Positions 1 through 12,871 of a stretch of DNA of 64,000 nt are shown in pieces. Under the pieces are notes generated by a model. That model saw only the letters and a list, made by a program, of their open reading frames with translations. It searched no databases and had not been told where the DNA came from. This DNA is from Eledone cirrhosa (taxonomy: Eukaryota): contig OZ024754.1 of NCBI GenBank assembly GCA_964016885.1, forward strand, positions 24,242,001 to 24,306,000, given 5' to 3'. The translations under genes and the position numbers were made by a program. Every line of letters begins with the position of its first letter. Position 1 is the stretch's first letter.

Positions 1-160
1 CAGTCGGCCGCCCTCGAGTGGATTTTATCTGTTATATTCCTTTGTTATATTTTGAATACCTGATGATGTCACCGGATTCATACTGAACCCGGTCATTGAA
101 ATGATCATAGTATAATAAACCTTTCAAGGATTTACACCAGTCCAGCCTCCTGTTATTTTA
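1..160 (+). mobile_element. 3' end of a PLE-like pseudo-LTR, truncated by the window edge and running into an AT microsatellite
   Basis: HHR plus AATAAA, about 40 nt of extension, then an interrupted (TA)n at 159-257; same layout as the neighbouring elements. Confidence 0.55.
56..113 (+). ncRNA. Minimal type I hammerhead ribozyme, family A (long stem II, possibly degenerate)
   Basis: Stem I ATAC(56-59)/GTAT(110-113); core CTGATGA 60-66; long stem II with ACCGG/CCGGT and TTCA/TGAA; GAAA 98-101; palindromic stem III ATGATCAT 101-108; predicted cleavage after A109 (AUA triplet); AATAAA at 114-119. The base of stem II is non-canonical. Confidence 0.7.
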
Positions 161-222
161 TAATTATATATAAATATATATATATAAATATAAATATATA
201 TATATATAAATATATATATATA

Positions 223-257
<35 letters not shown>

Positions 258-384
258 GAATGTATATATAATGTATTTTGCAATACACTTTATGCTTAAT
301 TAAAAGCATTTTGAAGACCGTATGCTATTGTTTTAGAGTAGTGACAAACTCACTTACTTTAATCTCAGCAAACAAGGGGAGATA

Positions 385-429
385 AGCCGACAAGGCCTTG
401 TTTCGCATTTATTGATGCTTATCAAGGCT
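385..429 (-). ncRNA. Hammerhead ribozyme family B, inverted copy
   Basis: Exact reverse complement of 607-651. Confidence 0.85.
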
Positions 430-606
430 AACTACTCCCTCCTGTCTACTGAGATCACTGATGTTATATTCTTATAGAATTCTAGTAAATAATCAGGAAC
501 TGATTATACAGAGCGGTTGCCGGTCAGGCAGAAATAAAAAATTAGAATTGGAGCTCTGAAATAACAATATAACATCAGTGATCTCAGTAGACAGGAGGGA
601 GTAGTT

Positions 607-651
607 AGCCTTGATAAGCATCAATAAATGCGAAACAAGGCCTTGTCGGCT
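607..651 (+). ncRNA. Minimal type I hammerhead ribozyme, family B (U3-A8 core variant)
   Basis: Stem I AGCC(607-610)/GGCT(648-651); core TTGATAA 611-617; stem II GCAT-caataa-ATGC 618-631; GAAA 632-635; palindromic stem III ACAAGGCCTTGT 635-646; GUC triplet with predicted cut after C647. Confidence 0.85.
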
Positions 652-812
652 TATCTCCCCTTGTTTGCTGAGATTAAAGTAAGTGAGTTTGTCACTACTC
701 TAAAACAATAGCATACGGTCTTCAAAATGCTTTTAATTAAGCATAAAGTGTATTGCAAAATACATTATATATACATTCATATATATATTGCTATTTCAGA
801 ACTCCAATTCTA

Positions 813-857
<45 letters not shown>

Positions 858-872
858 AAAAAATGGGGAGAA

Positions 873-943
<71 letters not shown>

Positions 944-953
<10 letters not shown>

Positions 954-1346
954 TAAACGGAATAGAAAATGCTGACAAATTGTTCACAGTTGAAAAATGG
1001 TTTAATTAGGAATAAAAGAGTATTAGTGATTGTATGGGTTAGTATTCAGTTGTGGTTTTAAGTTTTTAAGTTTTTACCGGTTGCGCATTTCTAAATGCTT
1101 TTCAAAAATAATTTTGAGATAGAGTGTCCGAGATCTCAAAATTATTTTTGAAAAGCATTTAGAAATGCGCAACCGGTAAAAACTTAAAAACTTAAAACCA
1201 CAACTGAATACTAACCCATACAATCACTAATACTCTTTTATTCCTAATTAAACCATTTTTCAACTGTGAACAATTTGTCAGCATTTTCTATTCCGTTTAC
1301 CAATATATAATAACTTAATAACTTGTGTGTTACACCTCTATTCTTT

Positions 1347-1351
<5 letters not shown>
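944..1351. repeat. Long palindrome (177-bp arms, 12-nt loop) with a ~41-nt tail, between (TA)n tracts
   Basis: 944-1120 is the reverse complement of 1133-1309; loop AGAGTGTCCGAG; unpaired extension 1310-1351; (TA)n at 875-950 and 1351-1428. No HHR core seen. Confidence 0.9.
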
Positions 1352-1433
<82 letters not shown>

Positions 1434-1774
1434 GTGTGTGTATATATAATATATATATATAAACAGTATTCAAGAATGTCTTACTAATGCGGTTTCGTGT
1501 GGAACAGGACGTTAAGAGTTAAATAATTTTTGCCAATGCAGATCCCACTAGTTGAATAGAACTGTTTTTTTTATTTTATTTTATACTAAATGCAGATATG
1601 TTAATAATTACACGAGATCTTTTCATAGAAATATATACATAAGTAGATAAATAAATAACTAACGAACTAGTAAATGCGACATGTTCTGCACTCTCTTTTT
1701 CTTCTGTATTTACGTCTCGAACGATAACGATTCGCTGTTCCGGTTGTCAGCTGTTATGAATGAATAGCTGGTAT

Positions 1775-1901
1775 GAACACATACACACACATATATATTA
1801 CATAAATTCATACATACATGTACACAAACAGACACACACACATACTTACATACATATACATGCATGTACACAAACAAACACACGCTCACACACATATGTA
1901 A

Positions 1902-1967
<66 letters not shown>

Positions 1968-1992
1968 ATATACATATATGTGTGTGCGTGTT

Positions 1993-2028
<36 letters not shown>

Positions 2029-2107
2029 TGTATATAAATATATATGCATATATATAGATGTTTGTATACACACACACATCTACACACAGAGACACACATA
2101 CACACAC
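1775..2107. repeat. Compound (CA)/(TA)/(TG) microsatellite region
   Basis: Alternating purine-pyrimidine tracts, directly visible. Confidence 0.9.
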
Positions 2108-2155
2108 TAAGAAGATCACTACGTTAGGAAATCTGCTAATGTATGTATTTACTTA

Positions 2156-2208
2156 AGAAAGAAGGAAAGAAAGAAGGAAAGAAAGAAGGAAAGAAAGAAG
2201 GAAAGAAA
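2156..2208. repeat. Polypurine repeat with a 12-bp unit (GAAGGAAAGAAA), about 4 copies
   Basis: GAAGG recurs at 2161, 2173, 2185 and 2197. Confidence 0.85.
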
Positions 2209-2375
2209 CGGCAAAGAAAATCTTTACATTTTGTTTAAATTTATTTCGTTTACTTAGCAAAATACTAAGTACATTTTCAGCTATTCCTTAAAATATATTC
2301 CATATTTCCACAGACTTTCATTGAAACCAAAATCTTACACTCGAAAACCGGAAATTCAAATACGAACATTTTAGA

Positions 2376-2597
2376 AATAATAACGTTTTTTCTAATTTAG
2401 GCACAAGAACAGCAATATTGTGTGTGGGTGAGGATCGAAGAGGTGTGAGGGGTGTGTGGCATTACATCATCCTTTATGTTTTATGCTGGTACTTTATTAT
2501 ATCCATCCCCGAACGGAAAATTAAACTCTAGACGTAAAGAGTTGTAATTGAATATTGAAAAGAATTCTGCACGATGATCTAACGATTCACCCAATAT
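2376..2597 (-). mobile_element. Degenerate SINE copy, same family as 12016-12298
   Basis: Reverse-complement matches to the plus-strand copies: ctaatttaggcacaag vs cttgtgcctaaatcag, tactttattatatc vs gataaaataaagta, and a (TAA) tail. Confidence 0.6.
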
Positions 2598-2849
2598 TTC
2601 CCAATAGTATCGATTTCTAATTATAGTTTGAATTATATATAAGTGTTTAGTAACATATTTTAATGAATAATTTACTTCAATAATCTAACACAGTAGGAGT
2701 TCATACAAAATTGTTTTGAAAATATTATAGGTAGCCGTGTGTACAGTTTATTCCAATACATTATCGTATTTTGAGCTGATATAACTTTTTCACCTACAGC
2801 GTTCCAGTTTTTATATTTGAAAACGAATTTCTTTATATGTTTGTGTGTG

Positions 2850-2930
<81 letters not shown>

Positions 2931-3077
2931 GTTAAAATACTGGAGCGTATTGGAGTTAAACACCCTCTTCGTATTATAGAAATGACAGTAAAAGGTATAG
3001 CTCAATGTAGTTAAACAGAGCCGAAGAATTAAGAAAGTAAAACAAAGAAGCCTTCAATACATCAAAAGTCTTTATTA

Positions 3078-3115
3078 GCCGACAATGTTTCGTCCTATTA
3101 AGGACTCATCAGGGC
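3078..3115 (-). ncRNA. Hammerhead ribozyme family C, inverted copy
   Basis: Exact reverse complement of 4340-4377. Confidence 0.92.
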
Positions 3116-4339
3116 AATTAAAACAACAAGAAGTATTATCGGCCAATACAAGCCGGAAACTCCGAAGAATATGGAGTGTACATACACTAAAGTATTGCAA
3201 GATTATGGGTAAAAATATATAATAAAAATAATAAAAATATATAATAAAAATTACTAAGGAGGTGTATAACATTAAGAACCATATTACAAATATAGTCCAA
3301 AGCAAAAAACCCCTAGAGCTAAACAAAGGTGGTTATATAGAGCAGGAATTATATATAATACAATGTAATATAATATAATATACTTTACCAATATTAAAAT
3401 TACAATAAAAATTAAAAGGTACAATATACATATGTATATATGTACGCACACATACACATACATCAATACACATATCCATCTTCAACTGCACAAATTAAAC
3501 CTTATTAAGAGTTTAAATATAAATAAGCATGATAGGAATGAAAATAATAATAATAATAATAATACATATACCCAATATACATGAGGTAATAATATGATAT
3601 TATTATAAGTAGCACATATAATAAATAATAAACTATACAATTATATACTATATAATATAATATAATAGAATAGATAATCTCCGGTTAATTTACACAAACA
3701 ATATAGATGTCGCAATAATACTATAATAATAATATACTAACATTTATAATATACAATATATAATGGCATTCAAGTTAACAAATCAATTCATATAGAGTTA
3801 CAGAGTAGGTGAGGAAAAATAAATTGTACAATACCCAAAATTATGATGGTACAAAAATATAAACATCTTACATGATATATAAAGTTTAACATATCATAAT
3901 GTTACATATAATTAACGGTAAGTAATAAGGATCGATATTACAATAACAAATACAATATAATATAATATATTATATAAAATAATTAACATAATATAATATA
4001 TAATTACTTCTAATTACAAGGTTGGTAAACAGACGTGTATGTGGATGAGTGAGTAAGGGCCAGACAGTAAATATAATGCACAGTAGTATTACAAATAAAA
4101 TATAAAATATAAAATATAGAATAAAATAAATAAATAGAATCAACCGGAAATTAAAAAACAAAAACAAAAGTATACATTTAGGTCTCACATGCAGTTAAGT
4201 AAAAACTAAGGAAATAACCCCGGTAAATGACTCGAAAACCCTATTTGATAAATTAATATTAAAAATATTTAAAATATCCAATAAGGCAGTATAAGTTTCC
4301 GGCTTGTATTGGCCGATAATACTTGTTGTTGTTTTAATT

Positions 4340-4377
4340 GCCCTGATGAGTCCTTAATAGGACGAAACATTGTCGGC
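4340..4377 (+). ncRNA. Minimal type I hammerhead ribozyme, family C (canonical core)
   Basis: Stem I GCC(4340-4342)/GGC(4375-4377); CTGATGA 4343-4349; stem II GTCCT-taat-AGGAC 4350-4363; GAAA 4364-4367; quasi-palindromic stem III ACA-T-TGT; GUC triplet with cut after C4374; AATAAA 4379-4384. Confidence 0.92.
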
Positions 4378-4422
4378 TAATAAAGACTTTTGATGTATTG
4401 AAGGCTTCTTTGTTTTACTTTC

Positions 4423-4479
<57 letters not shown>

Positions 4480-4486
<7 letters not shown>

Positions 4487-4692
4487 AGAAAAAAAGAGAA
4501 TCACTGTTGCGACGAATGGAATTTATTGGACATATTACGATCGTAATAATATTGTAATATTATTATGATCGATTGTAATGTGTCCAATAAATTCCATTCG
4601 TCGCAACACTGATTCTCTTTTTTTCTGTGATATCATACTCTGCTCTATGAGAGCATCGAGTGCTCATACGGACGCTTTAAGCATCCAACACC

Positions 4693-4696
<4 letters not shown>
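4480..4696. repeat. Imperfect palindrome (4480-4633) with a ~63-nt tail, between (TA)n tracts
   Basis: ATATCACAGAAAAAAAGAGAATCA...TGATTCTCTTTTTTTCTGTGATAT arms pair to a centre at AATATT-gt-AATATT with a few mismatches and an indel; (TA)n follows at 4696-4759. Confidence 0.85.
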
Positions 4697-4767
<71 letters not shown>

Positions 4768-4769
4768 AT

Positions 4770-4997
4770 CATCCTACCATCTTATAATACCATCATTTGA
4801 TGACCAGGTTGACCACAAACTGTATTGACACAGCAATAAGATAGCTCTACCATCTAACCATTCATAATAAAAGACCAAGTGACCAAGAGCTGAATTAACA
4901 CAACTATAAGATAGCTCTACCATCCTACCATCCTACCATCATACCATCATACCATCTTACCATCTTACCATCTTACACCATCTTACACCATCTTACA
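4770..4997. repeat. Degenerate ACCATC-based tandem repeat with a 19-bp direct repeat
   Basis: ATAAGATAGCTCTACCATC at 4836 and 4906; ACCATCYT-like units at 4918-4996. Confidence 0.7.
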
Positions 4998-5159
4998 AGC
5001 GTTTCTAAATAAATACAATTAAATATTATAAACAATAGTTATGGTGTAGAAACCTGCTGCTAAGTTGGAGAAGAGATGAGTAACTTTCACTTCCATAATT
5101 TAAGCTGTCTACCCGAATTTCATATGTAAAATGACTTGCCATTATAATTTAGAAAGAAA

Positions 5160-5378
5160 ATCATCATCATTATCATCATCATCTTCTTCTTCTTCTTCTT
5201 CTTCTTCTTCTTCTTCTTCTTCTTCTTCTTCTTCTTCTTCTTCTTCTTCTTCTTCTTCTTCTTCTTCTTCTTCTTCTTCTTCTTCTTCCGCCCAATCGTC
5301 ATCACTTCAATCATCATCACCACCACCATCACCATCATCGTCATTATTACTACTATTATTATTATTGTTATTATTGTT
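5160..5378. repeat. Compound trinucleotide microsatellite (TCA)/(TTC)~35/(CCA)/(TTA)
   Basis: Directly visible; pure TTC tract at about 5182-5288. Confidence 0.95.
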
Positions 5379-5616
5379 TACTTACATGAGGATAAAAAAC
5401 AAACATCTTGAGTTCTCTCTTAAAAGGCATTAAAACACATTCTGACGCCGAGCTGTCGGCTTGCCTTCGCACGATGCTCATCTTAAACACATATTAAGAT
5501 ACGCTTAAATTCCAAATAAACTATTAATCCGAAGACGTGTGCAAGCCGACCATAATACTCAAGTGTGTGTATGTGTGTGTGGTACTCATATATATATGTT
5601 CTATACATATATGCAT

Positions 5617-5744
<128 letters not shown>

Positions 5745-6233
5745 ATATGTGTATATGTATCTATACATATAAAGTTGTAGTTCCTGTCTGTCTGTTTGTT
5801 CACGAACTCCTCCTATAGTTTTGGAGATGAGCCCCGTAACCATATATATTCTGAAACTACATTGCCCAGGGTACTTGGATAAGTATTTTTCCTTTTAATC
5901 AAAAGGCACAAACCCCCGCTGAAAATGTTTTCCCTTCGATTTATATGAAATCTAAACCATAGGTAAATGACAAGATATGATGCCTATTCAAAAAAGTTTT
6001 GAATTGATATTTTGAAAAAAATGATTTACAAGAAACAAAATAAGAATAAGATTTAATAATGTAATTTTGATTTGACATATTACAAAAAATAATGTTTTCC
6101 AATTTTTCATGCATTACATTTTACATTGAGTAATATTGAAATGCAGAGTTTTTCTCCATAAATTATATCACTGATTTAAAATCAATCATCATTTTCTTAC
6201 AAAAAAAAAAATATTGAAACGCACCAAGGCACG

Positions 6234-6235
<2 letters not shown>

Positions 6236-6306
<71 letters not shown>
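6236..6306. repeat. (TA)n(GA)n microsatellite
   Basis: Directly visible. Confidence 0.95.
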
Positions 6307-6509
6307 CAATTTCATCTTGTGATTTGAAGTTTTTCTTCACTATTCAAATAGAACTCACAACATTAAGTTCTTGTCTGAATATGTCACTATCTGTAAACCA
6401 ACTTTTGTATTTTATCTGATGAGGGCGTACCAAAATTTTGGTACCCTTGAAATATATATAATAAAATAAATATGGTTTTATAAAGATAGTTTCCATTTAT
6501 TAATATTAT

Positions 6510-6621
<112 letters not shown>

Positions 6622-6632
6622 GAAAAATGTAT

Positions 6633-7305
6633 GACCCCGACAGCAGAGATCAAGCCGTTTCGACGGCTATTTCCAGAAATATGTGACACCTGTAAAGAAG
6701 TCAACCAGGTATAACTGGAATGGGACCTCAGTGGAACTCCTGGTTCAAATGAGACCAGAAAGTTGATAACCACGTTATCAAGTGGAGGGCAGAAAACTAC
6801 AGTGTTTTAAATGTGGGAAAACACACACATAAAAGCATTCTGCTCAATGCTGAACGCAGAAAACCCGAACAAGATGTTGCTACCAACACCCAAACCTCAA
6901 CAGCAACACCCGAAAACCAAAAACACAACCCCAAAATCCTCAACATCCACCTCACCATCACAAACTACAAAAGACACCAAACCAAAAATTCCCCCGAATG
7001 ACTCTATCCTACCCCTTCCCCTTCTGTCTAACACTCTCACAAACGCACACACAAACATTCCACCACCACACAACATACCCCTTCCCCATACCTCCAATGA
7101 TAACACCTCAGACACAGGAACCTCTACATCTCCAAGTGAGGATGAAGAGGAACCCCCAAAAATCCAAGAAACAAAAAAGTAACAAAAGAAATACAAAAAC
7201 AAAAATATCCACCGTGTCTTGCTAAAAGGATTCCCTCCCTCCCCAAGCACTCCCAGTTTGGACATGGAGATCGAACAACCCGACCTCCAGCAAACTAAAA
7301 GGTAA
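6633..7305 (+). pseudogene. LINE ORF1 C-terminal remnant (gag-like, CCHC zinc knuckle, Pro/Thr/Ser-rich tail)
   Basis: VEGRKLQCFKCG/ENTHIKAFC at 6782-6843 forms CX2CX4HX4C across a frameshift; internal stop at 7180-7182; the frame ends at TAA 7303-7305. Confidence 0.75.
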
Positions 7306-7346
7306 GTGTTCCTGCCCTTTTCTCTCCCTAACTCTTCTTCACCAAC

Positions 7347-10300
7347 ATGGCGTCTATACAAGTTGGATGTTTGAATGTGCGTAGCCTGGGGATGTCCTGG
7401 AAATAGGGCCAATTTTTAAACGACCTCAGGTCACACTATATAAATGTGATAGCAGTCACTGAGTCCAGGATTCACGACAGGCAGCAGCTAACCCCCATGT
7501 TCGGTGACTTTGAGATCTACGTATCTCTCTGTCAGCCAGGAGGTGGAAGGGGAGTTGCTGTTTTGTTTCCAATAAAACCTGGGTTTCAAAGTACAGACAA
7601 TCTACTTGGACCTGGAGAGCAATTTGATTGTCCTAGACGTTAATGGTTGTGAAAGTGGAGCTTTCAGACTGGTTGCCGTAAATGCCCCAACTGGGACATC
7701 ACGACCAGAGTTCTTTAAGCGTTTTTAACGCTCTTTACTGTTAGAGTGGGACTGGAATGGTATCTTAGACACACGTTGGGACTATGTAGAGATATATGTT
7801 AGTAGAGAGCGTGTAATAGCCTCAAAAATCTTATCAGCCAATTCCAACTGGCTGATAGATATCGACTATATTTCCCAAGTGCACCATTGTGGACGTGGAG
7901 CAACCGCTCTGGGTCTTCTAGATTGTATTTAGACAGATTTCTAATTAGACAAAATGATAGGGAAACATTAAGCTGTTCACAAATGCACAGACAACAAATT
8001 AGACAGGGACCCGAATACTGGAAGCAAAACATGTCGCTCCCGACACGTAAATCCTACAGTAAACGGATTAGCACTTTAGTTAAACGTCAGTTGACGGGAG
8101 CCATCGTTAACAACAGATGGTGGTGCTCTCTCAAGAGAGCAATTACAGTAGAATCAATAGCATTTAGCAAGGAAGTAGCTTTAGAAAAGAACAAAACTGA
8201 AAAGGAGCTGGTAGCCAAAGTAGAAGAGGCACTTAGGAGTGGCAGTACAGCTGACATGCTAGCGGCGAGACCGGCATTAGACCAGTTCTTCAACGTGAAA
8301 CACGAAGGTTGTATTGTCAGAAGAAGAACACGTGTTCTGAGAAATGAGGGAGCGAAAGCTCTTAGCTGGGCCTGCGTGGCAGAGGCGAAAAGTGGCAACA
8401 AATCCACAATTTGGTCTTTGGATATTACTTGAATCCAAGCAGATGTGCACGGCCTTCCAGCAGCACTTTGCACAACTGTTCAGGCAGAGCGACTCTCGAA
8501 CACAGATGCGGAGAGCTGCGAAAGGCTGATCACAGCGGGCGAAATAGAAGACGCTCTAGGCCGCTGTGGGTAACGAAAATCCCCCGGTTTAGATGGTCTA
8601 CCTTATGAGTTTTACATAGCCATGCCAGACTTGTTTTCTGAGGTCCTCGAAGCAGTCTACTGCAACTGGTATCAGAACGGGAGAATTCCCAGTTCTGTAA
8701 GCAGAAGCGTAGTAACGCTGATCAGGAAAGATGAGAACAAAGGGGATGAGATAAGCAATTTCAGGCCCATAACTCTGCTCAACACAGTTGAAGATTTTGA
8801 CCAAGATATTAGCAATAAGACTGGCGCTCGTCGTCGAGAACCTGGTGGGGGAAGCGAAAACGTGTGCAATCCCGACCACGAAAACCTCCACCTCATGCGA
8901 TACATCATAGAGAGGGTAGGGTGTAAACCTGGCTTCGGTGGGGCTCTGATCAATTTAGATCAATCTAAGGCATTTGATAAGGTCAACCATCAATACTTGA
9001 AGCGGTTCTCAAGGCGGCCAGTTTCTGTCCCGTCTTCAGAGGCTGGATCGCTGCCATGCACGGCAACATCTGCTCGGCAGTCAAGGTGAATTGTTACCTA
9101 TCGGAGCCATTCCAAATCATGCGTTCCATCCACCAAGGATGCCCTCTCTCCTCCATTCTGTATGTGCTGACTCTCGAGCCACTACTGCGGAAGTTGGAGT
9201 CATTGCAGGGTATCCTGATAGAACCAGGACTGCGAAAAGCAGCATTGGCCTCTGCCGACGACGTGACCGTAATGGTGTCGAAAACCTCAGAAATCGGGGT
9301 AATCGGCAACCTATTACATGAATACGAAACGTTGACAGGAGCAAAACTAAAACCCGAACACGTCTGTCTGTTTGCAACTCGGCAAACCCATGTCGTCCGA
9401 TAACGTCGTTGGACGCTGGACGGAAGGGCCGGTGAAATTGCTCGGGATCTAGCTTGGTCTAGACCTCCAGGTAGACAAAAACTGGAATGAGGCCACGGCT
9501 AAGGTGTTTGCACTCACCCAGAAGTGGGCTGAGTACAAACAACTCTCCTTAAAAAGTCGAGCGGAGATGGCGAACACTTACATAGCGTCCGTCATCTACT
9601 ACCGCTTGACTGTCGTGCCTTGTCCCCGCGATCACCTCACCAAAATGGAACTTCAAGTTCCTTTGGAAGAAACAGGCTCCGTTGGTGAGGAGATCCATCT
9701 GCTGCCAATACCCTTCTAACGGAGGGTTGGGCATGCCGTGGCTGATAATGCGCAAACACGCGCTGAGGTTACGCCATCTCCAGATGTTCTTGACCGGTAA
9801 ACCGGTGTGGTTGTTGGTTGAGAGACGAGCTTTTCCACAACTCGTCTCGTTAACAGAGATGCAGTCCTGGGTAAAGCGAAGACCGAAAATGGGCGCCTGG
9901 CACCTCGAGTGCCTTTAGGCGCTCACAGCCCTCTACGAAGCTAAAACTCCACGTCGACATTCTATAGGGGATTAGTGGAGGATAAGTTCGACGACGTTCT
10001 CGGGGAAACACTAGGCATCGAAGAGGACGAACTGTTCGAGAGGACCTTCCATCCAGGGCCTATGGATAACTTCCAGAGGTCTCTGGCCTGGAAGTGCTAC
10101 CGAGGAGCTCTACCAGTTCGAGACAAAATCTACAGGCACGGACGCCCTGGCTGGGATCCTGCCATAAGGACCTGTCTAACATGCGAGCAGGACATTGAAA
10201 CCGTCCTGCACGCAATTGTTCAGTGCCCAGAGGTGTCCGACCTATGTCAAACAGCTACTGTCACGTGCGGGACGCATCCAGTTGTCAGCCGAGTCCATCG

Positions 10301-10580
10301 TGAGGATCACCCCGCCGCCTTCATTTAAGAATGAAGGAGAGGCGACTTTCCTCTGTCTGGCAGCTATGACGAAATGGTTAATATGGTGGATGAGGTTGAA
10401 AGGACTGAGGGCAAACACCTTTATTTCCGGACAACAACTTATCCCTTCTTTAAATACCACTTCAGAAGGAAGGTGAGAGTGGAGAGAGAGGTGCTACCCC
10501 CCAGTAAATTCGCTGAAAGGTGTGTGAATCTGGCGGAAATGGCCCGAGTGAATGGGCTTTCCCTGTATATAAACCTGTAG
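7347..10580 (+). pseudogene. LINE ORF2 (APE endonuclease, reverse transcriptase, zinc finger) with multiple stops, frameshifts and deletions
   Basis: APE: MASIQVGCLNVRSL, VIAVTESR, GRGVAVLF, GDWNGILD, WTWSN..LDRFLI. Linker: GPEYWKQN. RT: KSPGLDGLPYEFY, FRPITLLNT, LDQSKAFDKVNH, QGCPLS, ASADD (9248-9262). C-terminus: GGLG, CLTC..ETVLHAIVQC. Stop TAG at 10578-10580. Confidence 0.93.
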
Positions 10581-11624
10581 GTTGAGGAAGACGGGAACAC
10601 CTACAAAACGTGCTCCTGGTGTTGAGGGTTGTTCTATGTTCTATCTACTACTCTGCAGTAACGTTCCCCTATTGAGGATTTTGATTGTTATTTTATTTTA
10701 TATATTGTTTATTGTTATTATTAATGTTAAAGTTTACATAATTTTTATATAAAACCCCCGCCGTCACGTCTTGTAATGTCCCATTTCTTGTACGCCCTTG
10801 TGGCAAATAAAGAATATCTATCTATCTATATGCGTTTCTCTCTCTCTCCCCCTCTCTTTCTCTGTGCCTCACTATCCATATATCTCCCTGAACTGCCTGC
10901 ATGTCTGTCTACGGGAGGCACAGCAAATATTTCTAATATTTTTCATCTTGGATGTTCCTACCACAGGGATTTATTAGACAAACTGAGCTAAACAAGTACA
11001 CTGACGATTAGATAGGTAGACGAAAAATTTAGTTTACGATCACAACAGTGATGATACTTTCACAAGTATAAGGAAAACATTTTCAGGCACCCTGTAGCTA
11101 CATAAAAGTATTTAAGTATTAAACATATAATCGTATCTCCTGGGTACCAGAGTAATATATTAATATTTTCACAGGTGTAAGGCGAGCGTTCATGCAAGAG
11201 CTTAACTCTTGGCGAGTTGAGTTCGTGACCCGCTTTCAAATGTTGATTTTAGCTATTTCATACCCCTTTCCATGACTAATGCTATTCAGAAAGGCATGAT
11301 TGTCACCACAACAAACTCCTCTTCTTTTTTTTCTACAATCCTGAGCTTAATGTATCTATCGATGTGGAAATCAATATTTTGATATATTTTGTTGAACTAT
11401 TTCCACAAAAGAGTGAATCTGATGGCAAGACGTGTGAATAGAATAGTCTAACTTCGTTTTTTGTGTTGTCGCCATTCAACTTTAATCATATTACTCATAT
11501 TACTGTTCGTAAGAAAAGCACGAACACAACATCCCAATATATTCCTCAATAAATGTGTAACTTTGTGTTACTACAACTTCAAGTTAGAAGTCAATATTTT
11601 TACAGGTGTTGAAAAAAAAAGTTC

Positions 11625-12467: not shown

Positions 12468-12470
<3 letters not shown>
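12322..12470 (+). mobile_element. Degenerate SINE copy interrupted by the RTE-type insertion
   Basis: Colinear with 12016-12298 (ctttacgttctcagttcaat, gataaagtaaa, atactggcatcgat). Confidence 0.65.
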
Positions 12471-12498
<28 letters not shown>

Positions 12499-12871
12499 CT
12501 TCTTCTTCTTCTTCTTCTTCTTCTTCCGCCCAATCGTCAGAGTGCGTAGCTCGGAGATCAAGGAGTCACTCCAGGTAGAGCCGCTACTTCTCCGAATTAA
12601 GAGATCACAGCACCGATAGTATCGGCATGTGGTTAGAATGTCGCGGGAAAGAATCGCTGGACAAATTTTACAGGCAAAACCAACCGGCAGGAGACCCAGT
12701 GGTAGACACCGAGCAAGATGGTTGGATAACATCCATGACTTTATCTGGAATCGCTTGGGGATCCAACCGGATCAGTTGGAGACGGTTGCTTCTGACAGGA
12801 ACTGTTGGAAGGTGTTTGAAGGCTCTGCCCTCACGACTATCTCAGGAATAAATGGGCGAAGAAGAAGAAGA
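12468..12871 (+). mobile_element. 3' fragment of an RTE-type LINE with a (GAA)n tail and an inverted tail copy at its 5' side
   Basis: Translation RVRSSEIKESLQVEPLLLRIKRSQHR*YRHVVRMSRER..GRRPSGRHRARWLD..ASDRNCW matches the C-terminal W.GHV.RM / GRP..RW.D / DR..W pattern of RTE-like ORF2; ends in TGGGCG(AAG)4. Confidence 0.85.

Follow-up and report, generated by a model that had tools for sequence, protein, structure and literature searches.

The left end of a 64,000-nt stretch of Eledone cirrhosa DNA (assembly GCA_964016885.1, contig OZ024754.1, positions 24,242,001 to 24,306,000; the window hereafter means this whole stretch) is occupied by a cluster of foldbacks, insertions made of two inverted arms embedded in (TA)n microsatellite, some of which carry hammerhead ribozymes (HHRs) and which we relate here to Penelope-like elements (PLEs). 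The window holds four complete foldbacks between (TA)n tracts (units 2 to 5) and the right half of a fifth (unit 1). A first-pass annotation made from the letters alone had proposed that all units abut (TA)n, the four complete ones with one arm flush with the tract and the other extended, and a search for inverted arms together with the TA tracts themselves bears this out: tracts adjoin all inverted-arm units, and each unit has one flush and one extended arm. The inverted pairs are 248-475/561-788 in unit 2 (228 nt, 100% identity), 944-1120/1133-1309 in unit 3 (177 nt, 100%) and 3028-3161/4294-4427 in unit 4 (134 nt, 99%), and the region 4477-4637 of unit 5 is self-inverted at 89.6%. Every family has two fixed 3' ends, A being the inner and B the outer one, and (TA)n adjoins both; the tail that runs from A to B, as measured in reference copies, is 142, 26, 33, 101 and 58 nt long for units 1 to 5, respectively.

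Read from left to right, the cluster starts with the right part of unit 1 (1-164, plus strand), which consists of the end of a B-arm (1-18, antisense) followed by an A-arm (19-164) with an HHR that was detected by pattern and fold (core 60-66, predicted cut after 109). This unit is a foldback too: the arm that completes it continues upstream of the window, where the B-arm and its 142-nt tail reach ~340 nt beyond the first letter. A degenerate (TA)n target tract between units 1 and 2 (165-257) leads to the A-arm of unit 2 (258-571, minus strand; mirrored HHR core 425-419), which exceeds the B-arm in length and extends into the tail of a preceding monomer, and then to its B-arm (561-815, plus strand; HHR core 611-617, predicted cut after 647; tail 789-815). 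Unit 3 has its A-arm at 950-1120 (minus strand) and its B-arm at 1133-1350 (plus strand), the latter with a degenerate HHR-like motif (core 1148-1154) and a tail of ~40 nt. Unit 4 is the largest, with a B-arm at 2927-4294 (minus strand; 101-nt tail 3027-2927) and an inverted truncated copy of 133 nt as its A-arm (4294-4426, plus strand); its HHR core lies at 4343-4349 on the plus strand (predicted cut after 4374) and is mirrored at 3112-3106 on the minus strand. The tract (TA)28 (4427-4482) is common to units 4 and 5, and unit 5 (4483-4695), made up of an A-arm on the minus strand from 4483, an AT-rich junction and a B-arm on the plus strand (~4570-4695, tail ~60 nt), is closed by a (TA)32 target tract (4696-4759).

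The five units have no significant BLAST similarity to each other; the first-pass annotation had described the three HHR-bearing ones as otherwise unrelated in sequence. They are also multi-copy, since first-look searches of the 3.0-Gb genome returned 1229, 2123, 26, 1751 and 1693 candidates for units 1 to 5, so they are not chance structures. Among the candidates that were scored (the top 40 per unit, and all 26 for unit 3), listed matches are mostly 95-100% identical to the window copy, unit 5 being the exception (79-100%). The foldback structure itself is not new, as it has been described for PLEs (Craig 2021; Frangieh 2024).

The key to the cluster is unit 4, the element sense strand of which is the minus strand of the window. 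It matches locus L033 at 96% over 1391 nt, 3' of a frame encoding a reverse transcriptase (RT) and a GIY-YIG endonuclease (EN), and the B-arm corresponds to the last 1.37 kb of a 3' untranslated region (UTR) of ~2 kb. To judge from these alignments, unit 4 is a 5'-truncated copy, reduced to 3' UTR, of an autonomous Hydra-clade PLE that has open frames elsewhere in the genome. The suggestion that all units are non-autonomous or heavily truncated PLE or retrozyme-like families thus needs qualifying: the PLE/retrozyme origin stands, but the unit 4 family is autonomous, and it is the window copy that is truncated. The search for copies linking the arms to an RT plus GIY-YIG frame succeeded for unit 4 and gave none for units 1, 2, 3 and 5. 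Three of the five long copies that were retrieved (L224, L227 and L228) have open frames (896, 891 and 885 aa), which are mutually 96-97% identical. Among 15 loci with the N-terminal region, six (L187, L189, L190, L195, L197 and L199) have a pseudo-long terminal repeat (pseudo-LTR) that stops at B directly 5' of a short 5' UTR and the open reading frame (ORF), two have a tail piece before the ORF, and the rest have truncated or inverted pieces only.

[quoted passage not shown] Its other signatures are ADKT at 128 (i.e. DKG changed to DKT), RWR at 38 (a variant of RWK), the CxCX5C linker CNCRVSANC at 747, CNLC-ILE at 845 (CxxC-E) and LNRKSE..CPH at 863 (N-CxH), all of which agree with the definition of the Hydra clade (PMC8557442, section 11); their likeness to Hydra-1_Obim was judged by eye against the text of the supplement. 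The GIY-YIG match in Pfam is weak (E 0.003 with a truncated frame; the full frame has no Pfam match at E 0.05), and no solved structure matched the PLE protein profile. There were 991 homologues of the protein among 8000 scored candidates, and the best named protein homologue is from Argonauta hians. Of the 43 distinct ends recorded for this family, whether A or B, 41 are followed by TA, in line with the flanking enrichment that the first-pass annotation had expected. Membership of Naiad, suggested by the TA target, was rejected on account of the C-terminal EN and the HHRs. The spacing between HHRs is ~4.8 kb (e.g. 4755 bp), beyond the trait 'generally under 3 kb', which is descriptive rather than diagnostic. 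By its motifs, the unit 4 family is a new family of the Hydra clade, and the cluster is recent and for the most part accounted for by what PLEs are already known to do. As a side observation, the ORF at L224 has a long Asn/Ser/Gly-rich insert at residues ~480-640, between the RT thumb and the EN linker, and close homologues of this protein align over about half its length only.

The other four families are non-coding. The unit 1 family is built on a 2.08-kb head-to-tail monomer in which the longest stop-free stretch is ~125 codons, and no PLE protein match was found within the monomer at 20 of 20 loci (one match lies outside it, at L216). The unit 2 family consists of tandem monomers of 319 bp, each with its own HHR (HHR-to-HHR period 319 nt); as a circle, the monomer has a predicted folding energy of -84 kcal/mol (-53 +/- 5.5 in 40 shuffles); on these sequence features it fits the description of non-LTR retrozymes, namely non-coding tandem monomers of 150-400 nt with a type I HHR each. 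The unit 3 family is low-copy, non-coding by eye, and reaches ~1.1 kb with internal microsatellites in its longer copies. The unit 5 family is short, most copies beginning ~30 nt 5' of an HHR-like motif, and no PLE protein match was found within the element at any of the 17 loci examined (one match lies outside it, at L234). Units 1, 3 and 5 have no ORF and show PLE-type ends, i.e. A and B, the inverted copy and TA. As this common insertion plan suggests, units 1, 2, 3 and 5 are probably mobilised in trans by such PLEs. Further arrays and foldbacks were met elsewhere. L267 (C1:1239300-1244900) and L268 (C1:5388200-5393200) are 310-bp HHR tandem arrays, inverted mid-array, with A and B ends in TA, a tail related to that of unit 2 and a C3-G8 core. 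Other-family TA-flanked foldbacks lie at L034 (1570-1856, 5005-5421 and the last 600 nt) and L184 (7764-8975), at most 20 kb upstream of the window.

Three HHR families had been announced from the letters, all minimal and confined to three units. The motifs are indeed present in units 1, 2 and 4, but that of unit 1 is not minimal, unit 3 has a fourth, degenerate motif, and the motif of the unit 5 family has been lost here by truncation. The type I core, C3UGANG8A..GAAA..UH with three stems, is canonical in units 1 and 4, and U3 and A8 replace C3 and G8 in unit 2. The unit 1 HHR combines this canonical core with a long stem II and a U-U pair adjoining the core, a pair that is common in the published Hydra list (PMC8557442). 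The unit 4 HHR scores 31.7 bits with Rfam Hammerhead_1 (E 6e-4), below the gathering score of 34, and an Rfam scan of the whole window found the unit 4 HHRs and no others (the microRNA matches in that scan were rejected as microsatellite or hairpin artefacts). The unit 3 motif has a U3-A8 core, a 4-bp stem II and GCA for GAA (1169-1171 in the window copy) in 31 of 31 own-family motifs counted; the same motif occurs with GAA and a compensatory stem change in an unrelated-looking family. The unit 3 motif is thus degenerate, failing the type I core at GAAA, and is predicted to be inactive. A13 is essential in the hammerhead. Since the core change is in every motif examined of this family, HHRs would not be needed in cis for spread. 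In the HHR-like motif of the unit 5 family the stem II region spans 63 nt; only the 3' piece of this motif remains in the window copy. PLE HHRs are known to cleave poorly in vitro (PMC4209133). Two Hydra-like elements, at L222 (~3700) and L223 (~2850), have an HHR-like core C-C-G-A-N-G-A (U4C) with stems that are otherwise paired.

The motifs were also counted in background DNA, for which we used 38 arbitrary 10-kb stretches (hand-chosen, and not proportional to contig size). Structured cores as a fraction of raw cores are 36/160 for C3-G8 and 15/369 for U3-A8, next to 5/206 for C3-A8, 1/215 for U3-G8 and 4/156 for G3-U8, the other eleven combinations giving at most 1, and this core covariation counts for the reading developed below. 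Across 10 compact stem variants there are four pair types at stem II position 3. A TA tract lies within 300 nt downstream of 28 of 51 predicted cut sites, as against 19.5% of random positions; the palindromic stem III in 51/51 is a consequence of the descriptor and was not used. Relaxed HHR matches number 52 in the same stretches, as against 1, 7 and 6 in shuffles. Census numbers are rough because the strict descriptor failed to pick up the HHRs of units 1 and 4, and relaxing it did not recover that of unit 1.

What the families have in common is the way in which their two ends are paired. In a tally of three families, with queries placed upstream of A, 43 of 45 two-armed units join one arm ending at A to one ending at B, one is A+A, none is B+B and one is unclassified; two A+B calls (L012 and L103) were dropped for a second arm of zero length, leaving 41 A+B among 42 classifiable units. 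A separate unit 4 set, i.e. all 18 opposite-strand pairs at most 6 kb apart among the first 100 listed motif matches, is A+B in 17 cases, the remaining one being A with an end 54 nt beyond B. For unit 2, 13 of 14 close pairs among the first 100 listed motif matches were used, with 10 A+B and three unclassifiable by eye (10/10 of the classifiable). Both 310-bp arrays (14 and 15 HHRs) are A+B. No statement of such a rule, nor of this signature on tandem retrozyme-like arrays, turned up in our literature search, which did not extend to older and subscription papers. The arms of one insertion are truncated independently: among the 43 units, the A-arm is longer in 19, the B-arm in 17, and they are equal in 7, and the B-arm stops inside the tail in nine credible units (within 6 nt of A in L003 and L144). 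The two arms resemble each other, with 3.6 differences within a unit as against 11.3 between units in the unit 4 family and 6.7 as against 10.3 in the unit 2 family, none of 5000 re-pairings being as close in either case.

Arms of this kind could be produced in several ways. The simplest reading, given that A-arms can be longer than B-arms and that A and B are paired from one variant, is twin priming on one RNA. An inverted arm might instead be the first cDNA folding back (or a product of DNA repair), copied until the target is rejoined via AT microhomology at A. Such copying would suit the source variants common to both arms, the perfect palindromes at several junctions and the fact that in each of the five families site A falls on a short AT/TAAT run, but a copy cannot exceed its template, yet the A-arm is the longer one in those 19 of 43 auto-called units (unit 2 of the window included), the B-arm never reaches A in nine units, and end A is also found in single-armed copies, so that this explanation is contradicted for the units concerned and unlikely overall. 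Somewhat less likely still are two separate insertions, from two RNAs and possibly at different times, placed back to back in one TA tract. TA tracts are indeed re-hit, nested insertions do occur (L107 and L134), and the L245 foldback (1304-1656) joins, at the usual 5' point, arms that resemble different relatives, a possible two-template event; against this, no TA separates the joined arms, which nearly always pair an A end with a B end and belong to the same subfamily variant.

Two further explanations bear on the nature of the units rather than on their assembly. Inverted termini, TA flanks, high copy number and the lack of an ORF are what one would expect if the non-coding units were DNA transposons inserting at TA, i.e. 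miniature inverted-repeat transposable elements (MITEs). This is very improbable, as the arms are unequal with variable inner truncation and a tail at one end, the monomers also occur in direct tandems and carry HHRs, and the RT-encoding unit 4 family follows the same plan. Foldbacks could also be assembly or library artefacts, to which the 100% identical arms of units 2 and 3 lend some colour, but we consider this the remotest explanation, because a fixed and family-specific A/B asymmetry recurs on many contigs, private mutations separate the arms in 17 of 18 units of the unit 4 family, and the same architecture has been published for other genomes. Pure fold-back copying, MITEs and artefacts are hence, like a special hotspot locus (see below), readings that we reject.

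We therefore favour twin priming at TA, and put at roughly three in four the probability that unit 4 is a truncated autonomous Hydra PLE, that units 1, 2, 3 and 5 are non-coding and likely trans-mobilised, and that the foldbacks likely stem from both cut ends of (TA)n priming on one source RNA. In this scheme, (i) the GIY-YIG endonuclease would nick both strands of (TA)n, (ii) one DNA end would prime at B and the other at A on one source RNA, (iii) the two cDNAs would stop at different points before being joined head to head, and (iv) every insertion would leave TA on either side, so that tracts could be re-hit and clusters accumulate. For the HHRs, which probably act as dimers, the predicted role is the cleavage of tandem transcripts at a point ~50-130 nt upstream of A. 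There is a precedent in Poseidon, the protein of which cuts and extends both strands, with two internal RNA start sites bounding the tail; it is a predicted dimer, and HHR cleavage is not needed (PMC11167929). A bolder version would be that twin priming is obligate and two-site, performed by one ribonucleoprotein (perhaps a dimer) on A and B of one transcript, that the same reaction inserts retrozyme arrays, in other words that Hydra PLEs mobilise animal retrozymes, and that this genome is among the most ribozyme-dense known, with at least ~130,000 and perhaps 200,000-600,000 HHR motifs; on this we would lay even odds.

Several observations weigh against this scheme. For units 1, 2, 3 and 5 the searches turned up no autonomous partner, and none of the six further Hydra-like EN fragments that were inspected has a 3' end matching these families. 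Frangieh 2024 (PMC11167929) saw start sites that did not differ between strands, so that strict pairing is not borne out in vitro by that work. The pairing rule has exceptions, with one A+A (L107) and apparent B+B at L053, L058 and L077 (called by eye, in sets biased to B), and 31 further entries have one arm only within the stretch examined (single-armed copies end at A as well). Among the youngest copies, selected by score, arms differ as much within units as between them in two families, those of units 2 and 4 (0.88 vs 0.88 in one, 3.50 vs 3.48 in the other), and gene conversion between arms could be an alternative cause of their likeness. Finally, the unit 2 HHR is weak in Rfam (HH9, 19.5 bits, E 0.079), and the unit 1 HHR has no Rfam match.

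The first-pass annotation proposed families that repeatedly hit the same TA-rich locus. TA targeting holds, but the locus is not unique, since the 38 arbitrary stretches contain 24 TA-flanked foldbacks, i.e. 0.63 per 10 kb (bootstrap 0.34-0.95), with a maximum of four in one stretch. Five units in ~5.1 kb is well above this mean, yet it fits a patchy distribution with nested re-insertion, so the locus is dense, not special. Extrapolation from these hand-chosen stretches gives roughly 100,000-280,000 foldbacks and 180,000-600,000 HHR motifs genome-wide. A firmer floor is given by whole-genome exact counts of two non-overlapping HHR patterns that do not enforce pairing, 60,353 + 69,527 = 129,880 in 3.0 Gb (controls 0 and 170). 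Exact 26-nt HHR motifs of units 4 and 2 occur 2461 and 527 times, respectively (reversed controls 0). By other methods, up to 120,000 HHRs have been counted in axolotl, ~5000 in mussel and >6000 in coral (PMC7229834); for minimal HHRs, the published figures are 2000-9000 in Schistosoma, coelacanth and Xenopus (PMC4209133). No cephalopod census was found in the literature that our search covered.

Further to the right, the window holds more of the same and other repeats. A further HHR unit (6380-6512, core 6416-6422) adjoins (TA)21; it belongs to the motif class counted 60,353 times by exact pattern, a member of which stands behind a Hydra-like EN and 3' UTR in L221. An end piece of another TA-flanked foldback family, in which no canonical HHR core was recognised, lies at 6623-6678; the family is also found at L107, L125 and L132, as well as in L157, where a Hydra-like EN adjoins it. 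The plus strand then carries, at ~7350-10800, a broken ORF2 of a long interspersed nuclear element (LINE) that looks L1/Tx1-like and in which pieces of RVT_1 (E 1e-5) and of zf-RVT (E 3e-5) are recognised. Next come (CTT)n and an apparent 3' fragment of an RTE-type LINE (12469-12870), with a similar start at 5182-5300. The rest of the window (13380-64000) is taken up, for more than 50 kb, by a satellite with a 29-bp repeat that is rich in AAC/ACC and shows extreme strand skew.

How do these elements compare with known systems? The unit 4 family resembles the Hydra clade of PLEs with C-terminal EN in its single RT plus GIY-YIG ORF, DKT, CxCX5C linker, the CxxC and CxH that flank E/N, a pseudo-LTR with a canonical HHR, insertion into (TA)n, a truncated copy in inverted orientation and a tail, and differs from it in its length (~4.8 kb with a 2-kb 3' UTR, the published elements being generally under 3 kb), its long low-complexity insert between RT and EN, its tail of 101 nt instead of 30-40 bp and RWR instead of RWK. 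In that clade, 26 of 27 families insert in (TA)n, Hydra-1_Obim from Octopus bimaculoides is a member listed in the supplement, Penelope-13_HM has an inverted 5' copy, and PLE tails are often at one end (PMC8557442). Recently active Penelope families have been reported in Octopus vulgaris (PMC13282606). The available parts of PMC8557442 list no non-autonomous partners for the Hydra clade, and the same paper (Craig et al. 2021) counts the formation of inverted structures and the microsatellite bias of PLEs among open mechanistic questions.

On the non-coding side, metazoan non-LTR retrozymes are also non-coding tandem monomers of 150-400 nt with a type I HHR each, coexisting with PLEs (the 319-bp unit 2 and its 310-bp sister family fall within this range), and the published link to PLEs draws on co-occurrence and phylogeny (Cervera and de la Pena 2020, PMC7229834; Li et al., bioRxiv 10.64898/2026.07.22.740005). 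Unlike these, the arrays here are inserted as TA-flanked foldbacks with A/B ends, and the unit 1 monomer is 2.08 kb long. The non-autonomous Chlamys PLEs such as MRC1 are comparable non-coding PLE derivatives with pseudo-LTRs and head-to-tail copies, but they are algal, mostly without HHR, and have a 3' end similar to that of autonomous partners, a likeness not found here (PMC8557442). Poseidon PAc of Anolis has in common with the present families a tail delimited by two internal sites at which RT starts, cutting and extension of both strands and an AT-rich target, but belongs to a different clade, and one-A-one-B pairing per insertion is not reported in the available text (PMC11167929).

Inverted copy, tail, HHR and (TA)n targeting have thus all been published for PLEs, and what is added here is the end-pairing rule, the finding that retrozyme-like arrays bear a PLE signature, and the size of the ribozyme load. 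These have implications for how (i) PLEs insert, because the one-A-one-B rule is a specific prediction for an in vitro PLE assay that already exists, for which elements with open frames and recent insertions by the thousand are available in this genome, (ii) animal retrozymes move, because PLE ends on retrozyme-like arrays are structural evidence on their mobiliser, and (iii) genomes are annotated, because the HHR count suggests a large repeat class that pipelines could be misfiling as MITEs or unknowns. A mechanistic parallel is twin priming in L1, where priming by the second end of the target takes place at an internal position of the same RNA and generates an inversion. The second site varies in L1, and there is no overlap between its two cDNAs, whereas in the families described here the second site is fixed for each family and the arms usually overlap.

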